This document shows, one piece after another, positions 1 to 63,502 of a stretch of 64,000 nucleotides of DNA. The stretch is from Parcubacteria group bacterium LiPW_15 (GTDB lineage Bacteria; Patescibacteriota; Minisyncoccia; UBA6257; 2-01-FULL-56-20): NCBI GenBank assembly GCA_007375645.1, contig VMER01000001.1, positions 5,139 through 69,138 on the forward strand, in the 5' to 3' direction. The position numbers were made by a program, and so were the translations under genes. Position 1 is the first letter of the stretch. The number at the start of each line of letters is the position of its first letter. Below the pieces are notes generated by a model. That model saw only the letters and a list, made by a program, of their open reading frames with translations, did no database searches and was not told the origin of the DNA.

Positions 1-2
1 GA

Positions 3-371
3 ACTTCGCAGCTCGACGGGACAGTAAGGCAAATAAGCTCGCTTATTCGGGAAGCGCAATCTAAATCCGTTTCGCAGGTTGGCGGCGCAACTTGGGGGGT
101 GGTTTTCGACAACACGACCACGAGCGAACCGTTTTACGGAATGTTTAAAGGCGCCTCCTATACCGCTACCACTTCGGTGTCGTATTATCGCTTGCCTGCG
201 AATATCGCCTACGCTACTTCCACGATTGCCGGCGGGTCTAAAGTTGAGATTTATTTTTTACAGATAAGCGGTCTGCCTTCCGCTACGGCTACGATTGGGT
301 TGGCCCTTCAGTCGCCGGATTCGCCGTCTTCCACCATCAGCGTGAATTCTTCCGGGGCGGTAAGTTTTTAA
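3..371 (+). CDS. C-terminal fragment of a hypothetical secreted or pilus-associated protein (open at the window edge)
   Basis: Frame of ORF 99..371 has no stop back to position 3, so the gene likely continues upstream of the window. Product is Ser/Thr-rich and sits directly before a prepilin gene. Confidence 0.3.
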   Translation, partial: TSQLDGTVRQISSLIREAQSKSVSQVGGATWGVVFDNTTTSEPFYGMFKGASYTATTSVSYYRLPANIAYATSTIAGGSKVEIYFLQISGLPSATATIGLALQSPDSPSSTISVNSSGAVSF

Positions 372-382
372 AAAAATAAAAA

Positions 383-1618
383 ATGCGTGATTATCGTAGC
401 GGTCAATCTCTTATAGAAATACTTGTGGCTGTCGGGGTGGGCACCATAATGCTTTTGGGTGCCATAACCGCGCTCGCCCCGGTCATCAAAAGTTCTACGG
501 ATGTGAACCGGAGCCAGATAGGCGCAGCACTCGGAAAAGAGTTGATAGACAATTTGAAAGTCTTTACGGAGGCCAACTGGCATAACCTTGATTCTTTGGC
601 AACAACTTCAGCAAACAAATATTTTTTGGTGATCTCAACCTCCTCCATGCAATCTGTTACGGGCACCGAGGTGGTTCCGTCCGGAGCGCCGGGCGCGGAT
701 CTGGTGGGTTATTGGAAGTTGGACGAAGGAGCGGCTTTAACGGCTGCAGACTCAAGTGGAAAGGGACACAGCGGAACTGTTTATGGCACCGTGGCCACTT
801 CGGGTTTCGCCGGTAATGCCAGATTTTTCGCCGGCGCCGGTAATTATATAGATATGGGTAGCTTGAACCATCTTTCCGGCAATAATTTTACCGTATCATT
901 TTGGGCGAAAACCAGTTCGACTTCGGATTATTCGAGCTTCATTGATAGTTCTATTGGGGGAGCTTCGAACCAGATAAGATTCTATTTGGGCTATTATTAC
1001 AGCAGTGTTCCCAGGGTTGCCATACTTTTGGGCAATGGCACAACCTTTAACACCTTAGATACCGGCTATACGATTCCGCCCGGCATCTGGGTTCATTACG
1101 CGGTTACCGTTAGCAGCACCCAGGTTATATTTTATGTTGATGGCAAGCAGTATGGCTCGGCGACAACCACGAGTTTAACTTTGGCGGAGGGGGATTGGAA
1201 GATCGCAAACGGTTTGGGTGGAACAGGCTGGTTCAACGGCTGGATGGATGATGTTCGCATCTATAACCACGCACTTTCTGCGTCCGAGATTCAAACCACA
1301 TTCAACGCCACTAATTTTTTTAGATATTTTTACGTGGACGATGTCCACCGCGACTCCAGCGGGAATATGGTAGCTTCCGGCGGAGGATTGGATCCGTCCA
1401 CCAAAAAAATAACGGTGGAATATTACTGGGGAGTGGTGGCGCCGAAAGCCTTAACCGTATATCTAACTCGCTCCGGGAACAGAACCCTTTGGCAGACTGA
1501 TTGGACCGGGGGCGCGGGTGTAAATGGTCCGGCCTCTACGACCGGAAGCACTTTCTCCACTTCTTCAGCTATAAACTTCGCGACTTCAAGCGGTTCCATA
1601 AGAATAGACGGATTATAG
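383..1618 (+). CDS. Prepilin-type N-terminal cleavage/methylation domain protein with LamG (concanavalin A-like lectin) domain
   Basis: N-terminus GQSLIEILVAVGVGTIMLLGAI is a class III signal/pilin motif. LamG-like blocks LVGYWKLDEG, SGNNFTVSFWAK and DDVRIYNHALSASEI are present. Confidence 0.7.
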   Translation: MRDYRSGQSLIEILVAVGVGTIMLLGAITALAPVIKSSTDVNRSQIGAALGKELIDNLKVFTEANWHNLDSLATTSANKYFLVISTSSMQSVTGTEVVPSGAPGADLVGYWKLDEGAALTAADSSGKGHSGTVYGTVATSGFAGNARFFAGAGNYIDMGSLNHLSGNNFTVSFWAKTSSTSDYSSFIDSSIGGASNQIRFYLGYYYSSVPRVAILLGNGTTFNTLDTGYTIPPGIWVHYAVTVSSTQVIFYVDGKQYGSATTTSLTLAEGDWKIANGLGGTGWFNGWMDDVRIYNHALSASEIQTTFNATNFFRYFYVDDVHRDSSGNMVASGGGLDPSTKKITVEYYWGVVAPKALTVYLTRSGNRTLWQTDWTGGAGVNGPASTTGSTFSTSSAINFATSSGSIRIDGL

Positions 1619-1624
1619 GCAAAG

Positions 1625-2515
1625 ATGAAAAATATTTTTCCAAAACTAATTCTTGCGGCAACGAGCATTTTGATCGTCGGATTTATTATAAAAACATTGC
1701 CATCGCCGAATACGGCCGAAGCGGTGGGCACGAACATAAGTTCTTCGGCAGGCAAGTATTGGGCTTGGAACGATGTCGTCGGTTGGATAAATTTTTACGA
1801 CACTCAATCGATAATCGTAGGTCCATATGGATTGACGGGTTATGCATCCTCGTCTTTCGGCGAAGTGTCTTTGGACTGCAATACCACGCCTATCGGCAAT
1901 ATTTGCGGAACTTCTAATTATCAGGTTTTAAACGACGGTAACGGGAACCTCTCCGGCTGGGGTTGGAATGACCAAGCCGGCTGGATAAGCTTTTGCGGAG
2001 GTCAAAACACTTCTGCTTGTCCGGGGACGGTGGGTTATGAGGTTTTGGTAAGCGCGGGCACGGGAATTTTTACCGGTTGGGCCTGGAACGATCTTGTCGG
2101 CTGGATAAGCTTTAATTGTTCAAATGTGCCGGGAAGCTGCACTACTTCGCAATACGACGTGGAAACTACATGGGTCGCCACATCCACATCCGGATTTCTT
2201 GAATCCACCACCTACGACACGGGAATTGCCGGAGGAGCGCAAATAAATTCCGTGCTTTGGAAAGGTTCGCAGCCCGCCGGTACGTCGGTAGGTTTCCAAT
2301 TCGCGGGGTCAAATTCATCTAGCGGTCCATGGATATATACAGGTCCTTCCGGAACAAACAGCTACTATACCGTTGGTCCTTCAATCTCTTTGCCGGTTGA
2401 TTATGCCCTTCACAACAACCAGCGTTATTTCAGGTACAAGGTTCAGCTTGTTTCGGATCAGGCGCAAAGAAATACGCCCCGGGTGGATGATGTTATAGTC
2501 AATTGGAGCCCATAA
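1625..2515 (+). CDS. Secreted Trp-rich repeat protein
   Basis: N-terminal signal peptide. Three copies of W(A/G)WND..GWI(N/S)F spaced about 55 aa apart (nt near 1759, 1969, 2081). No recognised family. Confidence 0.5.
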   Translation: MKNIFPKLILAATSILIVGFIIKTLPSPNTAEAVGTNISSSAGKYWAWNDVVGWINFYDTQSIIVGPYGLTGYASSSFGEVSLDCNTTPIGNICGTSNYQVLNDGNGNLSGWGWNDQAGWISFCGGQNTSACPGTVGYEVLVSAGTGIFTGWAWNDLVGWISFNCSNVPGSCTTSQYDVETTWVATSTSGFLESTTYDTGIAGGAQINSVLWKGSQPAGTSVGFQFAGSNSSSGPWIYTGPSGTNSYYTVGPSISLPVDYALHNNQRYFRYKVQLVSDQAQRNTPRVDDVIVNWSP

Positions 2516-2520
2516 AATAC

Positions 2521-2614
2521 AGAATCCAGAATTTAGAATGTAGAATATTCGTAAAATACATTCAAATTCACAAATCCTAATGCCACATTCTACATTCCAC
2601 ATTCTACATTCTCG
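2521..2614. repeat. Imperfect inverted repeat (about 20 nt arms, 16/19 match) with tandem ACATTCY heptamers
   Basis: Left arm agaatccagaatttagaatgtagaatattcg versus right arm cacattctacattccacattctacattctcg. Spans the stop of the upstream gene and the first codons of ORF 2580. Confidence 0.5.
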
Positions 2615-3029
2615 CCATCAGGGCCAGGCCGCTCTCTCGCTCATCTTTCTTATCGGTGGTATTGCGCTTTTGGTTGCGGTGACGCTTTCTTTGGTGGCCA
2701 TAAACTTTTTGAATTCTACTTTTGCTTTTCAATCCGCCAACAAGGCAATGGCGCTTGCGACGAGCGGGGTGGAGGATGCGCTCGTGCAGCTTAATAGGAA
2801 TTCCAGCTTTTCGAATATCGGCGGTTATATGGTTCCGGCCGGCTGTACGATTGGAGCGGCGGATTGCGCGACTGTTTTGGTCACGCAAAGCTCTCCCGCC
2901 GCCAATCAGGCGACAATTGTGTCCACAGCGACATCTTTCGCTTCTCAGCGTAAAATTCAAGTAGTGGTTGCGATCGACCCCAATACGGGCCAACTGGATA
3001 TTGTGTCGTGGGAGGTGAAGGCGCTGTAG
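2580..3029 (+). CDS. Putative pilin-like membrane-anchored protein
   Basis: Hydrophobic N-terminal helix GQAALSLIFLIGGIALLVAVTLSLVA after a short leader, pilin-like architecture, position inside the pilus cluster. Lacks the canonical Glu5, so the call is weak. Start overlaps a repeat. Confidence 0.35.
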   Translation: MPHSTFHILHSRHQGQAALSLIFLIGGIALLVAVTLSLVAINFLNSTFAFQSANKAMALATSGVEDALVQLNRNSSFSNIGGYMVPAGCTIGAADCATVLVTQSSPAANQATIVSTATSFASQRKIQVVVAIDPNTGQLDIVSWEVKAL

Positions 3030-3039
3030 GTTCACAAAA

Positions 3040-4557
3040 ATGAAACAAAATTCGCTCGCAAAACTCCTATCTTTCCTTCGCGCCAAACCGATGATCGGCG
3101 GTCTTGAGATCGCCGATACGGCCTTACGGTTTGTGGTTTGGGACGGAAAAACCTTTCAGATGACCGGACTTAAACTTCTGCCGGGCGTGGTCGTTGGCGG
3201 ACAACTGAAGGACAAAGAGCGTTTTATCGCCGCGCTTAAAATGTTACATGCTCAGATTTTGGGCGAAAAGAAACACAGAACTAAAATAAACGCGATAATT
3301 TCTTTAAGTTCCATCGGCGTATATACGCAGGTTTTCACCCTGCCGTTCATCGAGGGGGAGAGCCTTGAAAAAGCGGTGCAGCTGAATATTCAAATGATTT
3401 CGCCTTTGGATTTTTCGGAGGCCTATTCCGGTTGGCAGTTCGCGAATAAAGACGAAGACAAGGTTCGCCTAGAGATCTTAAGCGCTTTCGCAAACAAAGG
3501 CGTCGTGGATGAATTTTCCGGAGCGCTTCATGTTGCCGGGTTTTTGGTGGTCGCAGTGGAATCCCGCGCCCTTTCTTTATCTCGGCTCCTCAAGGAGGCC
3601 GGAGCCGGTTTCGATCCGACGCGATCGGAGGTAGTTATGAGCGTTGATGGAAGCGGATTGGACTTTTTGATAATCCGCCATGGACAACTGCATTTTGATT
3701 ATTTTAATTCCTGGCACGATATACAGGGTGAATCCAAAGAAATTTCTCCGGATGCTTTTCGTGCTGCCGTTATCAGAAATCTACATCAGGTTTTAAATTT
3801 TTATAATTCTCATTGGCAAGAGCCCCTTGATGAAATAATTCTTGCAACCACCGGCTTTCACGATGAGGTTGTAAAAATAATTCAAGAAAACTTTTCCATA
3901 AAGATTCGGGATTTTGAGCTAAACACCAGCCAAACGGTTGCACCGGATTGGTTTGTAGCTTTGGGTTCTGCGGTGAGGGGATTGATCCCGCGCCGTAGCG
4001 ACAAAGAAATAAGCCTCTTGGGCGTAGATGCCCAGGAAGAATTCGGAAGAGAACAGGTATTGGGATTTCTGCGTTTTTGGCAGGTGTTAATGCCCGCGGC
4101 TGCGGCGATATTCATGATTGCATTTGCGGGCGTTTATTTCTCCCTTTCCAATATAGATGAGAATTTGGAGGCGGACGTGGCCTCGGTAAACCGTGGAGAG
4201 CAAGCACAAGAGATGAGGGGCATCGAATCTCAAATATCCGAATTTAATCGGGCCGTAACCTTGCTTTCCAGCGTAGAAAAAGCCGCTACCCTAAAGACCA
4301 TACTGCTCCAAAAAATTTCTGATTTTTCCGGCAGGACCGGCGTAATGATATCCCGGATATATTATCAGTCTGCGAATTCGCCGATAATGATTTCCGGTTC
4401 TGCCAGGTCGCCCGATGACCTTCTGGCGTTTAAAAAACTATTGGAAGGGGAGCCGACCGTCAAGAATATAGAATTGCCTCCTTCCTCGGTGCAGGTTTCT
4501 CCGCAAGGAGCGGTGTTCTCTATGAGTTTTTCCGAAGCTCAAGCCAGCCCGCGCTAA
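3040..4557 (+). CDS. pilM: Type IV pilus assembly protein PilM fused to a PilN/PilO-like membrane domain
   Basis: N-terminal 330 aa resemble the actin-like PilM fold (GGLEIADTALRFVVW..., conserved G-rich blocks). Single TM (FWQVLMPAAAAIFMIAFAGVYF) follows, then a 150 aa periplasmic tail typical of PilN. Confidence 0.6.
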   Translation: MKQNSLAKLLSFLRAKPMIGGLEIADTALRFVVWDGKTFQMTGLKLLPGVVVGGQLKDKERFIAALKMLHAQILGEKKHRTKINAIISLSSIGVYTQVFTLPFIEGESLEKAVQLNIQMISPLDFSEAYSGWQFANKDEDKVRLEILSAFANKGVVDEFSGALHVAGFLVVAVESRALSLSRLLKEAGAGFDPTRSEVVMSVDGSGLDFLIIRHGQLHFDYFNSWHDIQGESKEISPDAFRAAVIRNLHQVLNFYNSHWQEPLDEIILATTGFHDEVVKIIQENFSIKIRDFELNTSQTVAPDWFVALGSAVRGLIPRRSDKEISLLGVDAQEEFGREQVLGFLRFWQVLMPAAAAIFMIAFAGVYFSLSNIDENLEADVASVNRGEQAQEMRGIESQISEFNRAVTLLSSVEKAATLKTILLQKISDFSGRTGVMISRIYYQSANSPIMISGSARSPDDLLAFKKLLEGEPTVKNIELPPSSVQVSPQGAVFSMSFSEAQASPR

Positions 4558-5068
4558 GAGCTTCTCCGAGAAGCAACTCCATTTTCTTTTTGGGTATATT
4601 TTTTAGAACAAATTCCTCCGCTTTTTTTCTGATTTTTTCGTCGGGATTTCTGATGCCGATGCGCATGCGTTTGAAATTGGAGATCCCTGTTTCGTTTCCG
4701 ATGGAAATGAGTCCATGGTGGCCGGCAAGGTTTGTGCTTTCGGAAATTTTTATCGTGCCTAGATTCAGGTCGCTATCGTCATGCAAGATTATTACCTCCG
4801 ACGGTTTGGCGGAAAAGTATTTTAAAACAGCCTTGACCGCGAGCCCTGAATCGTTCATGAAAGTTTTCGGCTTTACGAATATAAAAATATCTCCATTTTG
4901 TATCTCGGCCTTATGAAAGCCGAAAAGCGGGAAGCTTTTCTCCGGAGAAATATCCCCCTCCGGAAGCATTCGGGCCATAATTCCTTCAAGTGCCAGCGCC
5001 CCCGCGTTGTGGTAGGTATTTTCGTATTTTGCTCCCGGGTTTCCGAGCCCGACAAGAATTTTTCTCAT
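4520..5068 (-). CDS. pth: Peptidyl-tRNA hydrolase
   Basis: MRKILVGLGNPGAKYENTYHNAG matches the Pth N-terminal signature. Length 182 aa. Confidence 0.85.
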   Translation of the reverse strand: MRKILVGLGNPGAKYENTYHNAGALALEGIMARMLPEGDISPEKSFPLFGFHKAEIQNGDIFIFVKPKTFMNDSGLAVKAVLKYFSAKPSEVIILHDDSDLNLGTIKISESTNLAGHHGLISIGNETGISNFKRMRIGIRNPDEKIRKKAEEFVLKNIPKKKMELLLGEALSAGWLELRKNS

Positions 5069-5130
5069 ATTTATTTATATTAACCGGTCTTGCTAGGATT
5101 ATACCCTATAATGTATACTCAAGTGTAATC

Positions 5131-5661
5131 ATGCGGAAATTTCTTGCTTCCGTGCTCGAGGTTGCCGAAATCGCCCTTATCGCTTTGGGGGCGGTGTTCA
5201 TTGTGCGGCACTTTCTGGTGCAGCCCTTTTTGGTATCGGGAGCGAGCATGGCTCCGAATTTTGAGAACGGAGATTATCTGATGGTGGACGAGCTTACCTA
5301 CCGCGTGCGCGAGCCCCAAAGGGGGGAAGTCGTGGTTTTTCGCTATCCGAACGACAATACGACTTTCTTCATCAAGCGGATAATAGGTCTTCCCGGCGAG
5401 CATGTCGTGCTCTCTGACGGCAAGGTGGAGATAAACGGAAAGATTTTGGACGAAGGTTATCTTCCTCAAAATATTTCTACCCAAGGATCCGTCGATATTG
5501 CCTTAAAAACAGCCGAATATTTCGTGATGGGAGACAACCGTCCTTATAGCTTTGATTCCAGAAGCTGGGGCGTTCTCCCCAAAGATGATCTTGTCGGTGT
5601 CGCGAGATTGAGGCTTTGGCCGGTACAGGACTTTACCGTTTTCGCCGCTCCGAATTATTAA
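5131..5661 (+). CDS. lepB: Signal peptidase I
   Basis: TM anchor followed by the GASMAPNF (Ser box) and GDNRPYSFDSRSWG (box E) motifs. Start chosen at ATG 5131 inside longer ORF 4990. Confidence 0.85.
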   Translation: MRKFLASVLEVAEIALIALGAVFIVRHFLVQPFLVSGASMAPNFENGDYLMVDELTYRVREPQRGEVVVFRYPNDNTTFFIKRIIGLPGEHVVLSDGKVEINGKILDEGYLPQNISTQGSVDIALKTAEYFVMGDNRPYSFDSRSWGVLPKDDLVGVARLRLWPVQDFTVFAAPNY

Positions 5662-43336: not shown

Positions 43337-44146
43337 GTGGTTAATCCATTTAAGAAATTTTTTGGTCGTGAGGTTAAAAAACGTGGAGGTTTTACTCTCA
43401 TTGAGATGGTGGTCTTTACCGCCATTTTTACGGTGACCATAATCGCGTTTATTTCCGTTCTCATTTCCATAACCCGCACCCAGGTTCGGCAGAGTGCGGT
43501 GGCGGAGGTAAATCAGCAGAGCCAATTTGTTCTCCAAGCCCTCCAATATTATGTAGAGCGTTCCAGCCTCATCGAAACCGCGTCCACCGAGGCCACTACC
43601 ACCATCACGCTTCGGATGACGAACACTCTTGAAGATCCGACTTTAGTTTTTGCGAGCGGCACGCAGATCTATTCCAAAGTCGGCACCGATCCGGCACAGG
43701 CTTTAACGAGCGGCAAGGTAACGGTCTCTAACTTCTCAATGTCAAAAAGAGTGAATGCTCCGGGTAAGGATTCGCTCGCGGTAACCTTTTCCATTTCCTA
43801 TAACACGGCAAATCCTCAACAGCAGTTTTCACAAGCGCTTCAATCGGCGGTCGCGCGCGTGAATGCCGCAACTTTTGATTCCGGAATTTTTCCGAATGCG
43901 GATAATACGCTGAAGCTTGGTGCAACTTCGCAAACTTGGCAGTCCATAAATGACGTTATTTATTTCAGCGGAGCGAAAGTCGGGATAGGCGGAACGCCAG
44001 CCGCACTTTTTCAGGTTCATAACGGCGATGTTTATATAGACAGTTCGAGCAACGGCTTGGTTCTTAAGTCATCGGGTGGAACATGCTACAGGCTGACCGT
44101 CACGAACGGCGGTTCGGCTACCACGACGGCTATCGCTTGTCCGTAG
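43337..44146 (+). CDS. Type IV pilin / pseudopilin (prepilin-type N-terminal domain)
   Basis: Canonical cleavage/methylation motif KRGGFTLIEMVVFTAIFTVTIIAFISVL (G|FTLIE). 269 aa Ser/Thr-rich globular part. Confidence 0.8.
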   Translation: MVNPFKKFFGREVKKRGGFTLIEMVVFTAIFTVTIIAFISVLISITRTQVRQSAVAEVNQQSQFVLQALQYYVERSSLIETASTEATTTITLRMTNTLEDPTLVFASGTQIYSKVGTDPAQALTSGKVTVSNFSMSKRVNAPGKDSLAVTFSISYNTANPQQQFSQALQSAVARVNAATFDSGIFPNADNTLKLGATSQTWQSINDVIYFSGAKVGIGGTPAALFQVHNGDVYIDSSSNGLVLKSSGGTCYRLTVTNGGSATTTAIACP

Positions 44147-44200
44147 GCCTCTAGCTTATCCCCAGTCGTTCGGAAGGCCGGTTTAGTATAATAAATACAA

Positions 44201-44740
44201 GTGATACAGATAGACAAAAAATATCTTATGTTTGGCGCGGTGGGGCTGGTTTTGATCGCCGCAATTTTGGTGGTTGTGTTGACAGGTAAAAAAAGCGAAC
44301 CGGAGATAGTGACACCGGGCGGGGCAACGGCTACGACGACTAACCAGTCAAACACCTATAAACCAGTTTCCGTGGATACGAAGGTTCCGGGTATTAATTC
44401 CCAGGTTGATTCCGGCGTGGCCAAGCCGACCGAGGTTAAGGCTGTCGGAGTCAACGATCTGAGCGCGAGAAGTTTTAATGTTGTGTTGAATGGCGATAAA
44501 GTTTCTCCGGAAAAAGTAATCATAAAATTATTCGATATCATCACCATAAATTTTTCCGCAGTGGATAAAACTTATGACTTTGTTCAGCCGGATAATGGAC
44601 TCAGTTGGACGGTTCCCAAAGGCGGCTCAAAAAGTTTGCAGTTTCAAGGTACTACTGCGGGGCAGTTTACCTTCTATTGCGTTTCTTGCGGCGGGCCGAG
44701 CAAAGGTCCGATAGGATATTTTGTGGTCGTTCCAAAATAA
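44201..44740 (+). CDS. Membrane-anchored hypothetical protein with beta-sandwich-like C-terminus
   Basis: N-terminal TM (LMFGAVGLVLIAAILVVVL), Thr-rich linker. C-terminus ends CVSCGGPSKGPIGYFVVVPK. Confidence 0.4.
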   Translation: MIQIDKKYLMFGAVGLVLIAAILVVVLTGKKSEPEIVTPGGATATTTNQSNTYKPVSVDTKVPGINSQVDSGVAKPTEVKAVGVNDLSARSFNVVLNGDKVSPEKVIIKLFDIITINFSAVDKTYDFVQPDNGLSWTVPKGGSKSLQFQGTTAGQFTFYCVSCGGPSKGPIGYFVVVPK

Positions 44741-44761
44741 TCAATAAAAATAAAAATATTT

Positions 44762-45238
44762 ATGAAAATGAAAAAGAGAAAGATAATTTTTTGGGTAGGT
44801 GTGGCGGCGGTGATTATAGTGGCGGCAGTTTTGGTTGTATTCTTTTGGGCGCGCGACGAAAAGGCTGAAATGAGATCTTCCGGCATCACTGCGGTTTATA
44901 TGACTACGGGGGACGTTTATTTCGGCAAAATGGATTGGTTTCCTTGGCCCCGGCTTCGAAATGTCTGGTACATTCAGCGCGGAGTTGACGCGAAACAACA
45001 GCCACAGGTAAGTCTCGCTCCGTTTAAAGATGTTTTCTGGACCCCGATAGATGAAATTCGCTTGAATCCGAAAGAGATAATTTTCTGGACAACAGTGAGG
45101 GATGGTTCAGAGATGGCGCAAGCGCTTAAAAATCCGGAAGCTTTCAAACAATCACAGCAAGCGGCTCTTCAGAATGCCGGTACGTCTCCGGAGTCCGAAT
45201 TCAAGGGTCCGAGCGGACAGCCGCCGGCAACTCCGTAA
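44762..45238 (+). CDS. Membrane-anchored hypothetical protein
   Basis: N-terminal TM (IIFWVGVAAVIIVAAVLVVFFWA). No motif. Confidence 0.4.
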   Translation: MKMKKRKIIFWVGVAAVIIVAAVLVVFFWARDEKAEMRSSGITAVYMTTGDVYFGKMDWFPWPRLRNVWYIQRGVDAKQQPQVSLAPFKDVFWTPIDEIRLNPKEIIFWTTVRDGSEMAQALKNPEAFKQSQQAALQNAGTSPESEFKGPSGQPPATP

Positions 45239-45258
45239 TCTAAAAATTAAACAAAAAA

Positions 45259-48093
45259 ATGATGAGGAATAAAACAAATGTTATCAGGATGGCCGGTTTG
45301 TTTTTCCTTGTCTTGGGAGTGGCTCTTGCGGCGCAAAGTTTTGCCATAACCGGTCCCAGCGCCGGTGCCGGAGTCGGCAGTGGTTTGATAGATGTTGAAC
45401 CCACGGGGACAGGCAATCTTAGCGTTGGCGCAACCGCCGCGGATACAAGTACAAAATTTCAAATTACCGGCACAACCGCCAATAGTAGCGCCTTTGGTTT
45501 GAAAGTTTGGCCCTCAAGCGGTTCGGTTAATTTTCAGGTCAGAAATGACGGCGTTGTCTCTATTACTTCAACCACCTATATCGGCGGCAGCATATGTTTC
45601 GGAGCCATCGGGGCCACCGACTGCGTGTCCTCTTGGAGCGGCGTTGGCGGGGGAGTGACTTCCACTCCGGCCGGATATGTGACCCCCGGATATTTTAATT
45701 CTATCGCGGGAACGGGCGGGAATTATAGTTTTCCGGCAGCGCTTTCTATCGGAACCTCCACTGCTCCGTCGGGCGGAGTTTTGTTCGTGAATGGCAATAT
45801 TGGAATAGGGACGGCAGCGCCTGGGGTAAAAGTAGAAATTTTCGGCACTGATAATGCTCTTAGATTAACTTACGACGCTACTCACTATGCTACCCTCGCT
45901 GCCGGAAATTCAGGTAAGCTCACGGCATCATTTTCCGGTTCGGGATCCACTGGCGGGTATCTGGATATAACCCAGGCTCATACCTACTACGGATTTTTAA
46001 TTCATAGCGGCGCAAGCTGGGGCGGACAGGGGTTGATCGGTACAAATAAAGATTTAGGGATCTCTACCGCAACAACCACTCAAGATATAGTTTTTTACGG
46101 TAATAATTTTAGCGCTAATGAATACGTGAGAATAAAGGGCACGGGTAATGTCGGTATTGCGACAACAACACCGGGAAGTAAGCTAACCGTTGCCGGAGCG
46201 ATCTATTCCTCCACCGGCGGTTTCAAATTCCCCGATGGTACTACCCAGACGACTGCCGCTGGCGCAGGGACAAGCTACTGGACCCTTTCCGGTACCGGTT
46301 TATATCCGACTTCTACCGCGTATCAAGTTGGCATCGGAACGACAGAGCCGCACTATCCGCTTGAGGTTTACGGAACCTCAAATAAATTAGGCATAACCTA
46401 TAGCTACAGCGCCTTGGCGGGAGACTCAACCGGCGGAGAACTGTACGCGAGTAGCAACGGGGACCTGCATATCAATGCTAAGAGAGCGACCACCCTTATT
46501 GAAAACAGAAATATTTTATTATCCGAGGCGGGGGGCAATGTTGGAATAGGCACTTCGACTCCCGGGAGCCCCCTGACTGTTGTAGGGGCAATTTATTCCT
46601 CCACCGGCGGTTTCAAGTTCCCCGACGGCACCACCCAGACGACTGCCGCAACCGGCGGCGGAGGGACCAACTACTTCACTCTTTCCGGGACCAGCCTTTA
46701 TCCTACGTCCACCGCATATGAATTGGCTGTCGGTACCGCATCGGTAGACACAAATTACGCTATCACTACAGCCGGAGGCGGCATAAAGGCGGAATCAACG
46801 AGCCAACCGGCTGGATATTTTAATTCTTCTTCCGGCTACGGTCTTATCGTGAATACCGGAAAAGTTGGAGTTGGAACAACTACGCCTGTCGGAATGTTCA
46901 CCGTAGCTACTTCTACCGGTGCCGGATTCTTCACCGTTCTTCCAAACGGGAATGTTGGAGTCGGAACCGCAAATCCAACTCAAAAGTTCCACGTAATTGG
47001 AGCTGCCTATGCGGATTCAAATATGCAATCTCCTACCGGGTACTTTAATGTTCTTCGCCCGCTAACCACCGGAGGAGATCTTAGGTTTTTGGATAGCACA
47101 AGCACCGAAAGGATGAGGCTGGCTTCCACCGGCAATCTTGGAGTTGGAACGTCAACGCCGAGTGCAAGATTGGATGTGATGGGAAACATACTCGCCGGAG
47201 ATCGAGCCTCAACCGCTGATGGTTATCTGGATTTTGGAAGTAATGGCGCCGGATCGGCTAGGATTGCTAGGACCGGAATGGGGGCAACCGATTCGTCTTT
47301 GGTATTATCCACCACTTGGGGCACTCTTCAAGAAAGGATGAGAATTACCGGGTTGGGCAAAGTTGGTATTGCCACCACAACTCCCGGCAGCCAGCTAACC
47401 GTTGCCGGCGAAATATATTCCGCGACCGGCGGCTTCAAGTTTCCGGATGGAACAACGCAGACGACGGCGGCGACCGGCGGCAGTGGAACTAATTATTTTA
47501 CTCTTTCCGGAACAAACCTGTATCCGACCTCTACCGCGTATAAAGTTGGCATAGCTACCACTACTCCCGGTTATCCGCTAACGGTGGATGGAACGTCTAT
47601 GTTTACCGGGACCATGACCATCGGTTTAACCGGTGCAGGCAAATTAAACGTCGGAACAGTTGACCCGCCGTATACGATAAACGGCATGCAATACGCGACT
47701 TATATGCCCGGTATGACCGGACAAAAAGAAGAAACTACCGGGGAAGTTAACGTTCGGTGCCAGTCAGACTCCAGGTGCGAATATGTTATTGATTTTAAGA
47801 GCGTCGAGAGGGGGAGCGATCTTTGGCTTTTTGCGAAGACGACCAACTTGAAGGCTCAGATGAATAAACTGACCGTGCTTCTGACGCCATCTTTCAACGG
47901 AAAAGTTTGGTATGAAAAAGACGCGAAAAATATGGTTTTGAAAATATTTGGCGTCCCCTCCAAAGCCTTGGCGAAGGAGGGCCGTTCCGATCTTTCCGTT
48001 TCGTATCGTCTTACCGCGCCTCGCTTTGATTCGGCGAATTGGCTAAATACCAGGAACGAGCCAGGTGTCAACGGTTTCGTAATTAACGACTAA
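45259..48093 (+). CDS. Large secreted repeat protein (fiber/adhesin-like)
   Basis: Signal peptide. Three copies of about 55-aa unit (L/K)LTVAGAIYSSTGGFKFPDGTTQTTAA.G..T.Y.TLSGT.LYPTSTAY at nt about 46195, 46584 and 47404. Many (N/K)VG(I/V)GT(T/S)TP short repeats. Gly/Thr/Ser-rich. Confidence 0.6.
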   Translation: MMRNKTNVIRMAGLFFLVLGVALAAQSFAITGPSAGAGVGSGLIDVEPTGTGNLSVGATAADTSTKFQITGTTANSSAFGLKVWPSSGSVNFQVRNDGVVSITSTTYIGGSICFGAIGATDCVSSWSGVGGGVTSTPAGYVTPGYFNSIAGTGGNYSFPAALSIGTSTAPSGGVLFVNGNIGIGTAAPGVKVEIFGTDNALRLTYDATHYATLAAGNSGKLTASFSGSGSTGGYLDITQAHTYYGFLIHSGASWGGQGLIGTNKDLGISTATTTQDIVFYGNNFSANEYVRIKGTGNVGIATTTPGSKLTVAGAIYSSTGGFKFPDGTTQTTAAGAGTSYWTLSGTGLYPTSTAYQVGIGTTEPHYPLEVYGTSNKLGITYSYSALAGDSTGGELYASSNGDLHINAKRATTLIENRNILLSEAGGNVGIGTSTPGSPLTVVGAIYSSTGGFKFPDGTTQTTAATGGGGTNYFTLSGTSLYPTSTAYELAVGTASVDTNYAITTAGGGIKAESTSQPAGYFNSSSGYGLIVNTGKVGVGTTTPVGMFTVATSTGAGFFTVLPNGNVGVGTANPTQKFHVIGAAYADSNMQSPTGYFNVLRPLTTGGDLRFLDSTSTERMRLASTGNLGVGTSTPSARLDVMGNILAGDRASTADGYLDFGSNGAGSARIARTGMGATDSSLVLSTTWGTLQERMRITGLGKVGIATTTPGSQLTVAGEIYSATGGFKFPDGTTQTTAATGGSGTNYFTLSGTNLYPTSTAYKVGIATTTPGYPLTVDGTSMFTGTMTIGLTGAGKLNVGTVDPPYTINGMQYATYMPGMTGQKEETTGEVNVRCQSDSRCEYVIDFKSVERGSDLWLFAKTTNLKAQMNKLTVLLTPSFNGKVWYEKDAKNMVLKIFGVPSKALAKEGRSDLSVSYRLTAPRFDSANWLNTRNEPGVNGFVIND

Positions 48094-48103
48094 ATAAAGA
48101 CGG

Positions 48104-50236
48104 ATGAACATTTCTCCGAAAATAAAAATAATTTTTGGTACAACGATCGTCTTGTTGGTCCTTGCCGGAATCGGAATTTATTCGGCAAAGATAAATAAGA
48201 ACGGAGGTTCGGAGGAAATAGTTTACGAAAGAGGGAAACCGGTGATTCCTCACGGGATCCAGACTTACGAGTTTCTGCAGTCTTCGCGCGTCAGTCCGCG
48301 CATTCGGTTTCTAACCGTTGATCCTCTGGACGCGAAACCCGGAGAAACACAAAAGTTTAGGGTTGCGGTTGAGGGAAGTTTGCCGGTTGTTTCCGTCACC
48401 TTGGATATAGAAGACGATGCCGGGATCTCAAGTCTTGCACTCAAGAAAGACTTGAGCGGGGAAATGCCGGCATCTAGATATTCGATCGGAAAGGACAACG
48501 ATCTTACTTTTATTCCACAGAAAGAGAATCCTTCTTCGACGATCTTTCATTGGGTCGGGGAAAGGGTTGTCAAAAACAAAAGTGATTCAAAGTTCTCTAT
48601 CGGCATTACCGCGAAAGAATCGATTCCTCTTAAAGATGTGGCCGGCAATCGGCTGCCCAAGACGCCCGCAGCCGGTAATTTTGTGCGCATTGGGGTTGCA
48701 AACCTGGAGTGGAATAAAGTCTGTGGGATACCTTTCGGGGGCGATTGGAGTTCTTCCGAATCTTGTGCGGTTTCATTTCCGGACGGGGTAGATGAAGGGA
48801 GCGCTCATATCCAGAACTATTCCACTGTTGTCTTGGACGCAGATTTCGGAGTGAACGCAGATAAGACAATTATCTTTCAACCGATCGGGATAGTCGCCGT
48901 GAACACCAAGGCGAAGATAGTTCAGGGCAATATTTGGAAATTAAAATTAGACTCGGATGGGACGAAAGAGGTGATCTCGACGAATTCTCCGGGTTCCAGT
49001 TACAAGAGACGTTTTGAGTTCAAGGGAGGCTTTAAAACGGCATTTACGGATATAAATAATAAAAAGAAGGAGTTTGTGCTATCCCAGGGGCGGCAAGTGT
49101 TCCAAATAGCTTCCGCAGCCAAGACTGGGCCGAAAATAATTCAGGCGGATATAAATCCCTTGGACGTCAAAGTCGGCGACACCCAAAAATTATCTTTGGT
49201 TATACAGAGTCAGATCGAGATAGCTTCTGTCGTTGCGAGGATAGAAACCGACAAAGAAATCATTGAGCTTCCGCTTTCTTTGGATGGCCCAACTCCAAAA
49301 GCCAGTCTGCTCGAACCGAGATACGGCGTCGATGCCCATGGTTATCTGGCGTTTTTGAACAAAATTGATAACACCGGTTCAAATTCAAAATACGCCGTTC
49401 CGGGTGTTAAATCCGCCGAAGCCGCTTTGGAACCGAAAAGGTTTACATATAGTGGCTCTTGGATTGTGAGGGACACGCACTCCACTAAATATCATACAAG
49501 CTTTGTCGTAAAAGATATTAACGGGGCCGATAATTCTATTTTGATGGCCTGGTCCGATCCGTGCGGGACATTTGCGGGCGGGAATAGGGCGCTCAATACG
49601 TGTTCGTTTAGCGATGTGGATGGCGCGGATAATGGAAATCTCACCATAAATACTTCTCAGACAGTAACTCTGCAAAACGGCGCCACCTTGGCTTTCAATT
49701 CCGGAAGAACTCTAACGGTAAATGGAGCGATAGCTATTGCGGCCGGTGCTCAAATAACCCAAACCAATCTTTGGCTCATGGATATAGATGGCGATCTTTA
49801 TACTCCTTCCCTCACCCTTGCGGCTGCGGCGACGGCGCCGGCCAATAGCGGCAGGGCATACACTCGTTATACCTCTCCTTTGGATTGTTACGATCTGAAT
49901 AGCAGCGCTTTTCCAGATTCTAGTACTTGGAGCGATCGGGATCGCGGAGATTATTCTTTCGATTTTAATTGTGACGGCAACGATACTCCGGCTTTGGAGA
50001 GTGACGGCATTTCTTATCAAAATTGCAGAACCACAATACAGTATCCATTTTGTGCCGCGAATGCGTTCTCGGTTACCAATTGGTGTTCCGAGGGAATTAC
50101 TAACGGCGGGATTTGCACTAACGACAGGGTGGGTTGCGGCGAAGTCGGAAACATGGTCGTTTTAAATCAAGGGTATGCTGTTTGCGACGGCAGTTGTTCC
50201 GCCCAGGTCTTAGAGGTATATCAATCCTGTAATTAA
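48104..50236 (+). CDS. Large secreted protein with Cys-rich C-terminus
   Basis: N-terminal TM/signal anchor, 710 aa. The last about 150 aa contain more than 15 Cys (CYDLNSSAF...CDGNDTP...CRTTIQYPFCAANAF...CSEGITNGGICTND...CGEVG...CDGSCSAQ). Confidence 0.55.
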   Translation: MNISPKIKIIFGTTIVLLVLAGIGIYSAKINKNGGSEEIVYERGKPVIPHGIQTYEFLQSSRVSPRIRFLTVDPLDAKPGETQKFRVAVEGSLPVVSVTLDIEDDAGISSLALKKDLSGEMPASRYSIGKDNDLTFIPQKENPSSTIFHWVGERVVKNKSDSKFSIGITAKESIPLKDVAGNRLPKTPAAGNFVRIGVANLEWNKVCGIPFGGDWSSSESCAVSFPDGVDEGSAHIQNYSTVVLDADFGVNADKTIIFQPIGIVAVNTKAKIVQGNIWKLKLDSDGTKEVISTNSPGSSYKRRFEFKGGFKTAFTDINNKKKEFVLSQGRQVFQIASAAKTGPKIIQADINPLDVKVGDTQKLSLVIQSQIEIASVVARIETDKEIIELPLSLDGPTPKASLLEPRYGVDAHGYLAFLNKIDNTGSNSKYAVPGVKSAEAALEPKRFTYSGSWIVRDTHSTKYHTSFVVKDINGADNSILMAWSDPCGTFAGGNRALNTCSFSDVDGADNGNLTINTSQTVTLQNGATLAFNSGRTLTVNGAIAIAAGAQITQTNLWLMDIDGDLYTPSLTLAAAATAPANSGRAYTRYTSPLDCYDLNSSAFPDSSTWSDRDRGDYSFDFNCDGNDTPALESDGISYQNCRTTIQYPFCAANAFSVTNWCSEGITNGGICTNDRVGCGEVGNMVVLNQGYAVCDGSCSAQVLEVYQSCN

Positions 50237-60764: not shown

Positions 60765-61157
60765 ATGGAAAACGAAAAAATAGAAAAATTAGTAACCGAA
60801 GCGGAAGAAACCAGACTCATAGAGGCAGCCAAACTGCATGCCGAGTCTGTGGAGGGAAAAGAAATGAAGGGTGAAGAACTAATGAAGAAGGCAATTCAAT
60901 CCGTAACTCAAACCGTGCCGGTTCCGGAGCAGGCTGAGCCAAATTCCATTCAGAATCCTTTGACCGATTACACCGCGCAAGAACCGGAAGAAGTAAAAAG
61001 GAAGATCGAAGATCTTCTGCAGATCGCGGCGACCGATGGAATAGTCAGGGCTACGGAGGCGGCAAAACACGCCTCACCTTTCATCCTGGATGCTTTTCAT
61101 GACGCTTTAGCGGCAAAAGTCTATCCATACCTTCGGGAGAAAGGATTATTCAAATAA
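60765..61157 (+). CDS. Hypothetical acidic protein
   Basis: 130 aa, precedes the coupling ATPase with a 1-nt overlap. Confidence 0.4.
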   Translation: MENEKIEKLVTEAEETRLIEAAKLHAESVEGKEMKGEELMKKAIQSVTQTVPVPEQAEPNSIQNPLTDYTAQEPEEVKRKIEDLLQIAATDGIVRATEAAKHASPFILDAFHDALAAKVYPYLREKGLFK

Positions 61158-63502
61158 TGCTCACAGCCCTTTTTGTTTTTTTGGTGGCCGCAATACTCTC
61201 CGGGATCCTGTTTTTTGTTATCCGGTCCATTCATCGCAAGCGAACCATAAAAGATTCGCTGGAATACTCGCTTTTTGTGGTTCGTCTGCCAAAAAACCAA
61301 AAAACCGAGGGCCAGGACCCTAAGGCGGAGATAAATAAGTTCGAAGAATTTTTAAGCAGTTTACAAGGCCTAAAAAAACCGATGACTTTTGAGGTGGCGG
61401 TTCCGCATATCGGCGAAGAAATATCTTTTTATATTTCCGTGCCGAACGAGTTTACGGAAATGGCCAGACGGCAAATTCAGGGAATTTGGACCAAAGCAAG
61501 TATAGAAGAGGCGAGAGAAGATTATAATATTTTCAATTCCACCGGAGCCGCCTCCGCCGTATATTTGGCGCAAAAAGAGAATTTTTCTTTGCCCATAAAA
61601 ACTTATGAAGGCTTCGGCGCGGATACAGCCGCCGCGATATTCGGCGGTTTTACGAAGATGAGCGAGATAGGCGAAGGCGCTTCGCTTCAGATAGTTTTGC
61701 GTCCGGCCAAAAGCGAAGCCAGAAAAACTTTGAATTCGCATCTGGGTTCGTTCAAGAAGGGTTGGACCCGCAAGCAGATATTCGCGAGCGGTTTTTCCGC
61801 TGCCATAAAATCTTCAAGCCCCAAAGATGACAAAGAAAAAGAGCCTAAAGTCTTGGATGAAGAAGCGATAAAAATGTTGCAGGCGAAAACGAGCAAGCCC
61901 TTGTTCGAGGCCAATGTTCGCATTGCCGCAAGCGCTCCGATCCAGGTCCTCTCCGATAACATTTTGGGCGGCATAGCCGCAGGTTTCGAGCAATTTTCCT
62001 TGCCGCAGGGCAACCAGTTCAAAATAGTAAAGCCGAAAAATCCAGGCAACCTGATATTCGATTTTGTTTTTCGGGCCTTTAATGAAAACCAGAAAATAAT
62101 TTTGAATTCCGAAGAGATCGCAAGTTTTTATCATTTTCCGACTTCCGCCACGGAAACCCCGCGAATGAACTGGCTGAAATCCAAGGAAGCCCCTCCGCCG
62201 TCCGAACTCCCTTCGGAAGGAACTTTGATCGGGGAGAGCATTTTCCGCGGGGAAAGAAAGCCTATACGCATAACCGACGAAGACCGCCGCCGCCATATTT
62301 ATATAGTTGGTCAAACCGGAACCGGTAAAACTGTTTTTATAAACAATTGTGTAATTCAGGATATTGCCCGGGGCAAGGGCCTCGCAATAATCGATCCGCA
62401 TGGAGACCTGGCGGAAGCGGCTCTTGCGAATGTTCCTCCCGAAAGGATGAACGACGTTATTTATTTCAGTCCCGCGGATCTCCAGAAACCCCTTGGACTC
62501 AATATGCTCGAATACAACTTCGATCGGCCGGAGGAAAAGACTTTTATCGTGAACGAGATGCAGAGCATTTTTAATAAGCTTTTCAGCCAGGAAACCATGG
62601 GCCCGATGTTCGAACAATATATGCGGAACGCCCTTCTTCTCCTTATGGAAGACATGGTGAACGAACCGGCGACCCTCATCGAAGTTCCGCGTGTTTTTAC
62701 CGATCCCGAATTTCGCAAGCGAAAACTCGCGCGCATCAAAAATCCCACAGTCATAGATTTCTGGGAGAAAGAGGCCGCGAAGGCTGGCGGAGACGCGTCG
62801 CTTGCGAACATGACGCCTTATATAACCTCCAAGTTCAACAACTTTATTTCCAATGACTATATGCGGCCGATAATCGGTCAGGCCAAATCCTCCTTCAATT
62901 TTCGGGAGGTGATGGATTCCGGAAAGATACTCCTCATCAATCTTTCGAAGGGTAAGATCGGCGATATTAACGCTAATCTTTTGGGCATGGTGATAACCGG
63001 CAAACTCCTGATGGCCGCGCTCTCGCGCGTGGATATCGCCGACCAGAATGCCCGCAAGGATTTTAATTTATATATAGACGAATTCCAGAATTTCACGACC
63101 GATAGTATTTCCACCATTCTTTCGGAAGCGCGCAAATACCGTTTGAATCTGACGATCGCGCACCAATTCATCGCTCAGCTTACCGAAAAAATAAGGGATT
63201 CTGTTTTCGGCAATGTCGGCGCGCAGATAGTTTTCCGGGTTGGCGTGCAGGACGCGGAGTTTTTGGTGAAGCAATTCGAACCGGTCTTTGACGTTAACGA
63301 TCTTATCAATATCCCGAATCTTAATGCGCATGCCAAAATTCTCATAAACGGCCATCCGGCAAACCCGTTTAATTTGAGGGAAGGTTTTCCGCCAAAAGGG
63401 AGCTTGGAGGTGACTGAGAAACTTAAGGAGATGTCGCGTTCCCAATACGGAATGGAACGTAATACGGTGGAAGAGGAGATATATAGACGCTTACGGACAT
63501 GA
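61157..63502 (+). CDS. Type IV secretion/conjugation coupling-protein-like ATPase (VirD4/TraD/TraG family, AAA-like)
   Basis: N-terminal TM. Walker A HIYIVGQTGTGKT, Walker B LYIDEFQNF. C-terminal region similar to TraD-type coupling proteins. Confidence 0.6.
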   Translation: MLTALFVFLVAAILSGILFFVIRSIHRKRTIKDSLEYSLFVVRLPKNQKTEGQDPKAEINKFEEFLSSLQGLKKPMTFEVAVPHIGEEISFYISVPNEFTEMARRQIQGIWTKASIEEAREDYNIFNSTGAASAVYLAQKENFSLPIKTYEGFGADTAAAIFGGFTKMSEIGEGASLQIVLRPAKSEARKTLNSHLGSFKKGWTRKQIFASGFSAAIKSSSPKDDKEKEPKVLDEEAIKMLQAKTSKPLFEANVRIAASAPIQVLSDNILGGIAAGFEQFSLPQGNQFKIVKPKNPGNLIFDFVFRAFNENQKIILNSEEIASFYHFPTSATETPRMNWLKSKEAPPPSELPSEGTLIGESIFRGERKPIRITDEDRRRHIYIVGQTGTGKTVFINNCVIQDIARGKGLAIIDPHGDLAEAALANVPPERMNDVIYFSPADLQKPLGLNMLEYNFDRPEEKTFIVNEMQSIFNKLFSQETMGPMFEQYMRNALLLLMEDMVNEPATLIEVPRVFTDPEFRKRKLARIKNPTVIDFWEKEAAKAGGDASLANMTPYITSKFNNFISNDYMRPIIGQAKSSFNFREVMDSGKILLINLSKGKIGDINANLLGMVITGKLLMAALSRVDIADQNARKDFNLYIDEFQNFTTDSISTILSEARKYRLNLTIAHQFIAQLTEKIRDSVFGNVGAQIVFRVGVQDAEFLVKQFEPVFDVNDLINIPNLNAHAKILINGHPANPFNLREGFPPKGSLEVTEKLKEMSRSQYGMERNTVEEEIYRRLRT

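Follow-up and report, generated by a model that had tools for sequence, protein, structure and literature searches.

The Pilus Operon of LiPW_15

At the 5′ end of a 64,000-nucleotide stretch of DNA from the ultra-small Parcubacteria group bacterium LiPW_15 (contig VMER01000001.1, positions 5,139 to 69,138; hereafter the window), four open reading frames (ORFs) are tightly packed on the forward strand between positions 383 and 4557, with gaps of 6, 64, and 10 nt. They encode a PilV-like minor prepilin of 411 amino acids (aa; 383–1618), a secreted protein of 296 aa with Trp-rich β-hairpins (1625–2515; hereafter the Trp protein), a pilin-like protein of 149 aa (2580–3029) and a PilM-PilN fusion of 505 aa (3040–4557). 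From these four, the Trp protein is new. Type IV pili (T4P) from the candidate phyla radiation (CPR), pilins with a LamG domain and fused PilMN proteins are already known and not unusual (PMC8179133; PMC9934059; PMC7057214; PMC4471445), and the pilus module described here, with its LamG pilin and its fused PilMN, belongs to these known kinds.

The preliminary description of this DNA, made from the sequence by a model, had presented the four co-directional genes as a module. All four ORFs stand as it gave them, but the operon runs past the 5′ edge of the window. The window begins inside it, and the four genes are the last four of an eight-gene T4P operon, because nt 3–371 are the tail of another minor pilin gene, upstream of which lie genes for PilC, PilB, and a pilin. 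On the source contig (481,644 bp) of this metagenome-assembled genome (MAG), the genes follow one another as pilin, PilB, PilC, GspH-like minor pilin, LamG pilin, Trp protein, pilin-like protein without Glu5 (E5-less), and PilM-PilN. What the region holds is the distal half of a type IVa-like pilus operon from Patescibacteria, and the window as a whole resembles a small-genome MAG of this group.

The operon is headed by a 189-aa prepilin, the pilA or major-pilin candidate, with the N-terminal motif KG↓FTLIE (the arrow marks the cleavage position) and an N_methyl match of 35 bits, which is above the cutoff. The upstream PilB matches T2SSE (1.3e-117), MshEN, and TIGR02538 (2e-159), and PilC matches T2SSF (2.6e-47) and the GspF/PilC family (5e-86). 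The 3′ end of the fourth gene, encoding a GspH/FimU-like minor prepilin, is cut by the window edge and occupies positions 1–371 (+); the frame is readable from nt 3, and the translation of nt 3–371 is identical to the C-terminus of the 169-aa product of the gene on the contig. This minor prepilin starts with KG↓FTIVE and matches Pfam N_methyl at 23.5 bits (cutoff 21.2), while its best sub-threshold match is GspH (TIGR01708, 4.9e-7, below its own cutoff). A scan of 11 kb for promoters and terminators gave overall counts no higher than chance. Only the location of the top-scoring promoter-like site is suggestive: with 11/12 matches and an extended −10 TG, it lies directly upstream of pilA.

The Trp-Hairpin Protein

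The Trp protein (1625–2515, +) combines a Sec signal peptide, a domain of four Trp-rich β-hairpin units, and a C-terminal jelly-roll. The signal peptide is predicted to span residues 1–33 (1625–1723, +), with signal peptidase I (SPase I) cleavage at AEA↓VG. The family alignment agrees at this site, as position −1 is Ala in 52/65 sequences and position −3 is Ala, Val, Ile, or Ser in 59/65, and a mature start (A/S)TNI is nearly invariant. The Gly/Glu5 motif of prepilins is absent from the protein; instead, a classical (A/V)-x-A site precedes the conserved (A/S)TNI. Judged by these features the Trp protein is not a pilin, and its leader is of the predicted Sec/SPase I type.

The motif W[AG]WND..GWI[NS]F occurs in three exact copies, at residues 46, 112, and 152, whereas not even one copy appeared in any of 200,000 shuffles of the protein (0/200,000). 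The three repeats reported in the preliminary description were thus recovered exactly, and a single-repeat profile adds a fourth, degenerate unit. Unit 1 covers residues 46–58 (1760–1798, +; WAWNDVVGWINFY; independent E-value 2.4e-8), and its strands in the structural model are residues 45–49 and 53–56. The degenerate unit 2 (residues 72–105; 1838–1939, +; 'GYASSSFGEVSL'; 1.3e-6) contains a Cys-x8-Cys loop. Units 3 (residues 109–144; 1949–2056, +; 5.3e-18) and 4 (residues 149–186; 2069–2182, +; 2.6e-21) carry a Cys loop as well. Residues that are invariant in the family include W114, D116, G119, W120, and C132 in unit 3 and W154, N155, D156, W160, C165, and C172 in unit 4. The invariant Cys pairs C85/C94, C124/C132, and C165/C172 close a short loop, Cys-x(6-8)-Cys, after units 2, 3, and 4, respectively, so that the protein probably contains three disulfide loops.

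An AlphaFold2 model based on an alignment of 65 sequences is all-β (predicted local distance difference test, pLDDT, 92.2; predicted TM-score 0.76), and each WxWND..GWIxF motif forms one β-hairpin in it. The C-terminal part, residues 187–296 (2183–2512, +), is modeled as an all-β, jelly-roll-like sandwich. The only domain-size Foldseek matches to the protein are small jelly-rolls, i.e., PirA (7fcn; TM-score 0.51, probability 0.99), the C-terminal domain of PNGase, MAM domains, and carbohydrate-binding modules; in BFVD, the jelly-roll domain matches proteins of 110–121 aa with a TM-score of 0.61. In composition the protein is acidic and aromatic. Trp accounts for 13 of its 296 residues, and the mature form has a pI of 4.2 (4.05–5.15 over the family). 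The hairpin domain holds a single Lys or Arg vs. 10 Asp or Glu residues, with 14.6% aromatic residues and 45% Ser, Thr, Asn, or Gly.

No Pfam or NCBIfam model matches the Trp protein, and none recurs among 65 relatives that were scanned individually at E ≤ 1. Neither the single sequence nor the family profile has a relative in the PDB. Known modules made of aromatic hairpin repeats (choline- or cell-wall-binding repeats, β-trefoil (QxW)3 lectins, and propeller lectins) were likewise not matched by the protein in Pfam or in fold, and Foldseek gave no match to the model apart from the jelly-rolls. The statement of the preliminary description that the repeat protein belongs to no recognized family therefore holds in all of these scans. 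The Trp-hairpin proteins are a widespread family without a curated model, having a confident predicted structure that has found no match so far.

In NCBI the 296-aa protein is named 'Polymorphic membrane protein', which would make it an autotransporter adhesin of the chlamydial type. This identity is backed by the source annotation only. Scans with Pfam and NCBIfam found no Pmp repeat or autotransporter domain in the Trp protein or its 65 relatives and ruled it out. Moreover, the protein is short (296 aa) and all-β, with a cleavable signal peptide and no β-barrel in the model, and the organism is a monoderm-type CPR bacterium. We give this explanation practically no credence, and since no domain evidence backs the label, it looks like an annotation-transfer error.

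Distribution of the Trp-Hairpin Family

A word-indexed search yielded more than 1,215 homolog clusters of the Trp protein, all of them unnamed or 'hypothetical'. In a scan of one genome per species, relatives were found in 406 genomes, the best 80 of which are all Patescibacteria, including Liptonbacteria, Wolfebacteria, Harrisonbacteria, Colwellbacteria, Jorgensenbacteria, Paceibacterota, and Minisyncoccia. An exhaustive search with the single-repeat profile reached further and gave 5,004 clusters at 50% identity, 1,940 of them at E ≤ 1e-10. The proteins bearing the repeat are between 129 and 3,269 aa long, and there are typically four units per domain.

A subset of the family is about 450 aa long (P0003, P0004, P0012, P0022, and others, 434–465 aa; locus L005, 8001–9365). 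It arose by internal duplication of the hairpin domain, in some members together with the start of the jelly-roll, and has up to eight repeat units. The longest protein, P0332 (3,269 aa), comes from a member of the Desulfobacterales and is annotated as DUF1566-containing; the module is therefore not specific to the CPR. Lastly, two ORFs next to Trp-hairpin proteins that are not pilins resemble pilus components at their N-termini. The one at L010 8160–9173 begins with 'MANVNLLPKG', a PilN-like motif, and a 97-aa ORF at L009 5594–5887 has a prepilin-like 'G↓LILIE'; both are without Pfam support.

Association With the PilV-Like Pilin

The gene order around the Trp gene was compared in the best 80 species-representative loci, the denominators below being the loci whose flanks permit the test. 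The PilV-like pilin lies directly upstream in about 90% of them (66/73 for its N-terminal part and 69/77 for its C-terminal part). Further upstream genes are those of the GspH-like pilin (57/66), PilC (52/58), and PilB (41/49), while PilMN (51/66) and the 149-aa-type protein (49/76) are encoded downstream. The Trp protein is a core component of this type of operon.

Its upstream partner in LiPW_15, the 411-aa PilV-like minor prepilin (383–1618, +), has the prepilin motif SG↓QSLIE, with Gly followed by Glu at +5. N_methyl is matched at 20.1 bits, marginally below the cutoff of 21.2, but orthologs and fused forms pass that cutoff (P0254: 25.6 bits). The N-terminal part is weakly PilV-like (TIGR02523, 4.7e-6, below cutoff). 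Residues 151–304 (833–1294, +) form a LamG domain (Laminin_G_3, concanavalin A-like; PF13385) that matches the model almost end to end (positions 2–151 of 151; E = 1.1e-28; 100.8 bits vs. a cutoff of 27.6). A LamG-domain prepilin, as the preliminary description named it, is thus present, but the LamG domain does not simply tip the prepilin. Orthologs without LamG are 208–210 aa long and align contiguously to residues 1–98 and 304–406 of the 411-aa protein, so that LamG is inserted within the pilin domain rather than grafted onto its C-terminus. The insertion is found in 8/73 syntenic orthologous loci of species-representative genomes, i.e., in a minority, as an occasional add-on. In a survey that covers over 1,200 modular pilins, of which many belong to CPR, PF13385 is among the commonest modules, and the insertion parallels that of the α-domain in the β-sheet of GspK (PMC8179133). 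The C-terminal domain of the pilin, residues 304–411 (1292–1615, +), is where the Trp protein is proposed to dock or to be tethered.

The strongest tie between the two proteins comes from natural fusions. Approximately 30 of the 147 best new repeat representatives (about 20%) have a prepilin N-terminus and the hairpin domain at the C-terminus. One example is P0260 (685 aa), in which residues 7–411 match the 411-aa pilin (E = 4.6e-51) and residues 427–685 match residues 36–296 of the Trp protein (49.6% identity, E = 2.5e-76). P0285, P0277, and P0268 are fused in the same way and include Laminin_G_3 as well, while in P0354 (from Ca. Wolfebacteria), P0322, P0312, and P0254 a LamG-less pilin is joined to the Trp protein. 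The C-terminal domain of the pilin is kept in all fused forms, including these LamG-less ones, and the fused genes hold the same slot in the operon, after PilC and the GspH-like pilin. At the junction, a Gly-rich linker lies between the pilin's C-terminus and the N-terminus predicted for the mature Trp protein ('...AISIDFNTAQSTSSGGGGG-ATNIS...'). In P0260 it reads '...FATSTGIDATSTTGAISID-FNTAQSTSSGGGGG-ATNISATSS...', i.e., the C-terminal motif of the pilin, a Gly/Ser linker, and the predicted mature N-terminus; the counterpart of this pilin motif in the window is the end of the 411-aa protein, '...FSTSSAINFATSSGSIRIDGL', followed by the stop codon. The signal peptide is the sole part that is missing from the fusions.

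Among 70 species loci in which both parts are adjacent, 66 have split genes and 4 have a single ORF, and the two are likewise joined in several metagenomic proteins. A frameshift or assembly artefact as the origin of the separate 411-aa and 296-aa genes was rejected, because over 1,000 homologs and 66/70 species show the free form with a conserved signal peptide of its own. Together with the conserved synteny, the fusions strengthen the earlier suggestion that the Trp protein is pilus-associated, and such fusion and fission tie it physically to a single, specific minor pilin, on which it would be a tip module that can be detached.

The 149-aa Protein and the PilM-PilN Fusion

The gene downstream of the Trp gene encodes the non-canonical pilin-like protein of 149 aa (2580–3029, +). 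It has G↓QAALS and a hydrophobic stretch, and Glu5 is absent. The N-terminus is strictly conserved in 28 relatives as (R/K)G↓QAALSLVFLIGG; Gly occupies position −1, Ser takes the place of Glu at +5, and the helix is long and hydrophobic. Neither the protein nor the profile of its 28-member family has a sequence match in Pfam, NCBIfam, or the PDB, and N_methyl is not matched; Class_IIIsignal gives weak matches in 2/28 members. These N-terminal features and its position in the operon fit a cap subunit of the GspK/PilX type, which we propose it to be. Like GspK and PilX it keeps Gly at −1 and is without Glu5; unlike them it is small, has no inserted domain, and has no sequence match to the PilX_N or GspK models.

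The last gene of the operon encodes the PilM-PilN fusion (3040–4557, +), of 505 aa when counted from the ATG at 3040. Gene callers start at the ATG at 3091, which gives 488 aa. The start is ambiguous, as many homologs are 504–505 aa long with a conserved extra N-terminal segment (consensus K.L..LRA), for which the confidence of the model is low (pLDDT 49–65). In the AlphaFold2 model of the 505-aa protein (pLDDT 84), an actin-like domain (residues 19–315) is followed by a long helix (329–383) and an α/β domain (421–499).

The actin-like PilM domain (3094–3984, +) is supported by the family profile and by Foldseek. A profile of 48 homologs matches PilM in 3jc8 at 2.3e-10 and in 2ych at 3e-8, and PF11104 (PilM_2) is matched by 8/48 members, while the 505-aa protein alone is below the PilM cutoffs (TIGR01175, 7.7e-5, 21.8 bits vs. 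133). The top ten Foldseek matches to the model are all PilM (5eou, 1.3e-18; 2ych, TM-score 0.68), with cytoplasmic domains of GspL further down. In the linker from the PilM domain to the membrane helix, which has a pLDDT of about 84–88, lies the motif EISLLG (residues 323–328; 4006–4023, +), which is near-invariant within the consensus 'DxEISLLGIxAQEEFRREQ'. We take it to resemble the N-terminal INLLP motif by which PilN binds PilM (cf. the PilM:PilN(1-12) complexes; titles of 5eou and 2ych). The transmembrane segment, residues 346–369 (4075–4146, +), is the hydrophobic stretch FWQVLMPAAAAIFMIAFAGVYFSL within the long transmembrane and coiled-coil helix. The extracytoplasmic PilN-like domain (4300–4536, +) has the order α-β-β-α-β-β in the model. 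Pfam PilN (PF05137) matches residues 444–497 of the 505-aa protein with E = 0.014 and 15.9 bits, under the cutoff of 22.8, but it is found in 29/48 members (best 1.2e-6), and the family profile weakly matches PilN in 3jc8_N (0.093). PilN membership thus holds, on sequence criteria, at the level of the family and not for the single 505-aa sequence, and the domain scan bears out the single-chain PilM-PilN of the preliminary description.

The fusion itself is not new. Clostridioides difficile encodes a fused PilMN (PMC7057214), and PilM plus PilN are regarded as the equivalent of GspL (PMC4471445). The protein of LiPW_15 resembles both in combining a cytoplasmic actin-like domain, one transmembrane helix, and an extracytoplasmic ferredoxin-like domain in one chain. 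It differs from them in that no PilO-like gene, or PilO/GspM partner, is seen in the operon and in that its sequence is too divergent for the Pfam and TIGRFAM cutoffs.

The Trp Protein as a Putative Tip Subunit

In our preferred reading the Trp protein would be a non-pilin subunit that is docked on the PilV-like pilin at the tip of the pilus, where it would play a PilY1-like role, probably in adhesion to host glycans. We put the probability of this explanation as a whole, including both the identity of the operon and the tip mechanism, at about 0.6. The mechanism follows the analogy with the minor-pilin priming and tip complexes established for type IV filaments (PMC9934059; PMC8179133; PMC4471445). 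PilMN would anchor the PilB/PilC motor and couple it to the pilins, acting as a GspL-like single chain in which the PilN segment, through EISLLG, binds the PilM domain of the same protein. The GspH-like, PilV-like, and E5-less pilins would form a priming complex that finishes at the tip. The Trp protein would use Sec for export and be processed by SPase I, probably acquire its three disulfide loops, dock on the PilV-like pilin's C-terminal domain without a covalent bond, and be carried to the tip. There, the acidic hairpins rich in Trp, Asn, and Asp, the jelly-roll and, in this genome, LamG would constitute a multivalent binding head, most likely for glycans on the surface of host cells. The choice of a glycan as the most likely ligand is based on the lectin-type companions of the protein, on its acidic and aromatic composition, and on the precedent of the lectin-like minor pilins of Saccharibacteria. 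The preliminary description had proposed an adhesin or lectin, a role that we likewise infer.

Several points weigh against this reading. Fusion shows a functional link between two proteins, not a non-covalent complex. Binding of the free Trp protein to the pilin and its location on the pilus are proposals, glycan binding is presumed from composition and from neighboring lectin-type domains, and the disulfides are assumed from the invariant Cys pairs. The minor-pilin types (GspH-like, PilV-like) all score under curated cutoffs, and the pilin status of the 149-aa protein is read from its N-terminus only. From the genes that the preliminary description proposed to look for elsewhere in the genome, pilB and pilC lie immediately upstream, but pilT and pilD (the prepilin peptidase gene), as well as pilO, were not seen in the window plus 8 kb upstream (approximately 72 kb), in a motif-based and therefore weak search. 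Within the window, the motif search, which is weak and not genome-wide, gave no PilT/PilB-type Walker A motif and no PilD-like protein.

The hairpin module, moreover, is placed directly after the signal peptide in many non-pilin multidomain secreted proteins, which contain domains such as fn3, PKD, and CarboxypepD_reg, and no clear pilus genes were found around three of these (P0288, P0251, and P0275). The module is therefore not pilus-specific. Because it also occurs in non-pilin secreted proteins, outside the CPR, and in three genes that are not in recognizable pilus loci, it could be a general surface-binding or anchoring unit. Following this line, the Trp protein might work off the pilus, either as an envelope-anchored or wall-binding factor that aids the passage or anchoring of the pilus, or as a co-regulated but independent secreted adhesin. 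Its position behind the signal peptide of unrelated proteins, which is a frequent placement of anchoring modules, fits such a function, as do the three contexts just mentioned. Aromatic β-hairpin repeats are also reminiscent of cell-wall- and choline-binding repeats. However, no signal of Pfam CW_binding, SLH, or LysM was found in the Trp protein or its 65 relatives. The fifth of the repeat representatives that is fused to prepilin N-termini argues against a wall anchor too, especially since the orthologous fusions tether the module to the very pilin that is otherwise encoded upstream, and an anchor covalently fixed to a polymerizing pilin is hard to reconcile with this function. We consider an off-pilus role unlikely.

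A second question is whether the system is a pilus of the adhesive kind at all. It might be a competence or pseudopilus machine, similar to the Com system or the type II secretion system, that serves mainly in the uptake of DNA or nutrients, with the Trp protein as an accessory of a short retractile fibre. Minor pilins of the GspH-like and GspK-like types and a GspL-like PilMN architecture are common to pseudopilus systems (PMC4471445), and a gene for DprA (DNA_processg_A) is located near the operon, about 2.3 kb upstream of pilA and 6.5 kb upstream of the start of the window (L001, 1281–2291, −), next to that of topoisomerase I. The DprA gene is on the strand opposite to the pilus operon and may be there by coincidence or as a hint of DNA uptake. 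The best match of the ATPase is a type IV-A PilB with an MshEN domain, and the modules of the lectin type (LamG, jelly-roll) suggest that the ligands are glycans. In addition, their acidity sets the Trp protein and the tip pilins apart from the DNA-binding minor pilins that are known, and it disfavors DNA binding by the Trp protein. Taken together, an uptake machine seems quite unlikely.

Comparison With Known Tip Adhesins

A tip subunit as proposed for LiPW_15 would have counterparts in several known systems. In Streptococcus sanguinis, experiments have shown the pilin PilC to be a lectin, and modular pilins of the lectin type form tip complexes (PMC9934059). The two systems share a monoderm-type type IVa pilus, a minor pilin with a ConA/LamG-type lectin domain, and effector modules that are borne at the tip by small pilin carriers. 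In contrast to the modular pilins of S. sanguinis, LamG is here inserted instead of appended and is optional (8/73), and the chief conserved effector is not a pilin but a protein of its own, secreted by Sec, whose Trp-hairpin module is without a database signature.

The tip adhesins PilY1 and PilC of diderm type IVa pili (IPR008707, a β-propeller carrier at the C-terminus) are, like the Trp protein, no pilins, and they share with it a Sec signal peptide and a gene inside the minor-pilin block. PilY1 has been proposed to sit at the tip via the minor-pilin complex, following a 'carrier + effector' logic, and its modules are shared with modular pilins (PMC8179133). It has been described as absent from monoderms (PMC9934059). 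PilY1 is about 1,000 aa long or more vs. 296 aa for the Trp protein, and there is no kinship in sequence or fold: no Pfam match to PilY1/Neisseria_PilC was obtained at E ≤ 1 for the Trp protein or its 65 relatives, and no β-propeller is among the Foldseek matches to it. Another difference is the coexistence of fused and split forms of the Trp module among related species. The Trp protein may work like PilY1, by analogy, but is not a member of the PilY1 family.

Within the Patescibacteria, a comparison can be made with T4P-1 and T4P-2 (PilX1/PilX2) of the Saccharibacteria strain TM7x, which likewise have large tip subunits with accessory domains that are predicted to be lectin-like. PilX2 is needed for efficient binding to the host, and lectin-like minor pilins mediate host binding (PMC11623550). 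Unlike LiPW_15, TM7x has separate PilM, PilN, and PilO proteins, and its adhesins are pilins. Pilin genes are reported to be very poorly conserved outside Saccharibacteria, and neither a 'fused' or 'non-pilin' subunit nor a Trp-hairpin family appears in the text of the same study (PMC11623550).

More tentatively, the Trp-hairpin proteins could represent a new class of non-pilin, Sec-secreted tip subunits in the monoderm-type T4P of Patescibacteria, a functional counterpart of PilY1 with an undescribed four-hairpin Trp/Cys-loop fold that is widely reused as a pilus-display or lectin module. We regard this wider claim as possible but doubtful. If it is true, the Trp module would decide to which host glycans the episymbionts attach, and the coexistence of split and fused forms would record how tip adhesins change from modular pilins into free subunits or back.

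Patescibacteria account for much of bacterial diversity, and their cultivated members live attached to host cells. T4P are their best-supported attachment device, of which tip components have been described for Saccharibacteria only. The present analysis adds a conserved, unannotated component of the pilus operon of the Paceibacteria type. If confirmed, it would give an uncultivated radiation a candidate head for host recognition, provide a counter-example to the restriction of non-pilin tip adhesins to diderm pili, and add a domain family to the 'modular pilin' catalog, the authors of which state that modules without database signatures are missed.

Neighboring Genes and Other Loci in the Window

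At its 3′ end the pilus operon converges with the gene for peptidyl-tRNA hydrolase (4520–5068, −), which overlaps the 3′ end of pilMN by 38 nt. This gene is followed by one for signal peptidase I (Peptidase_S26; 4990–5661, +). The order pth, SPase I, HisRS, HIT, YqeY, YbeY, FtsA, and FtsZ that is found 3′ of the operon is kept in a Ryanbacteria-like contig (L004).

A second pilin-like locus is present at positions 43337–50236 (+). It includes a 269-aa prepilin with KRGG↓FTLIEM, whose N_methyl match of 21.2 bits is exactly at the cutoff, and, following it, four more ORFs with hydrophobic N-termini, of 179 (with a weak cupredoxin-like match), 158, 944, and 710 aa. These remaining ORFs have no meaningful Pfam match (one weak, sub-threshold match) and no Trp-hairpin motif. 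The locus may be another pilus- or adhesin-related cluster.

Lastly, the window contains a gene for a 781-aa coupling ATPase of the VirD4/TraG type (61157–63502, +), with matches to T4SS-DNA_transf (4e-7), TrwB_AAD_bind, and TraG-D_C. Its presence agrees with the recent description of type IV secretion systems in Patescibacteria (bioRxiv 10.1101/2025.01.22.634366).

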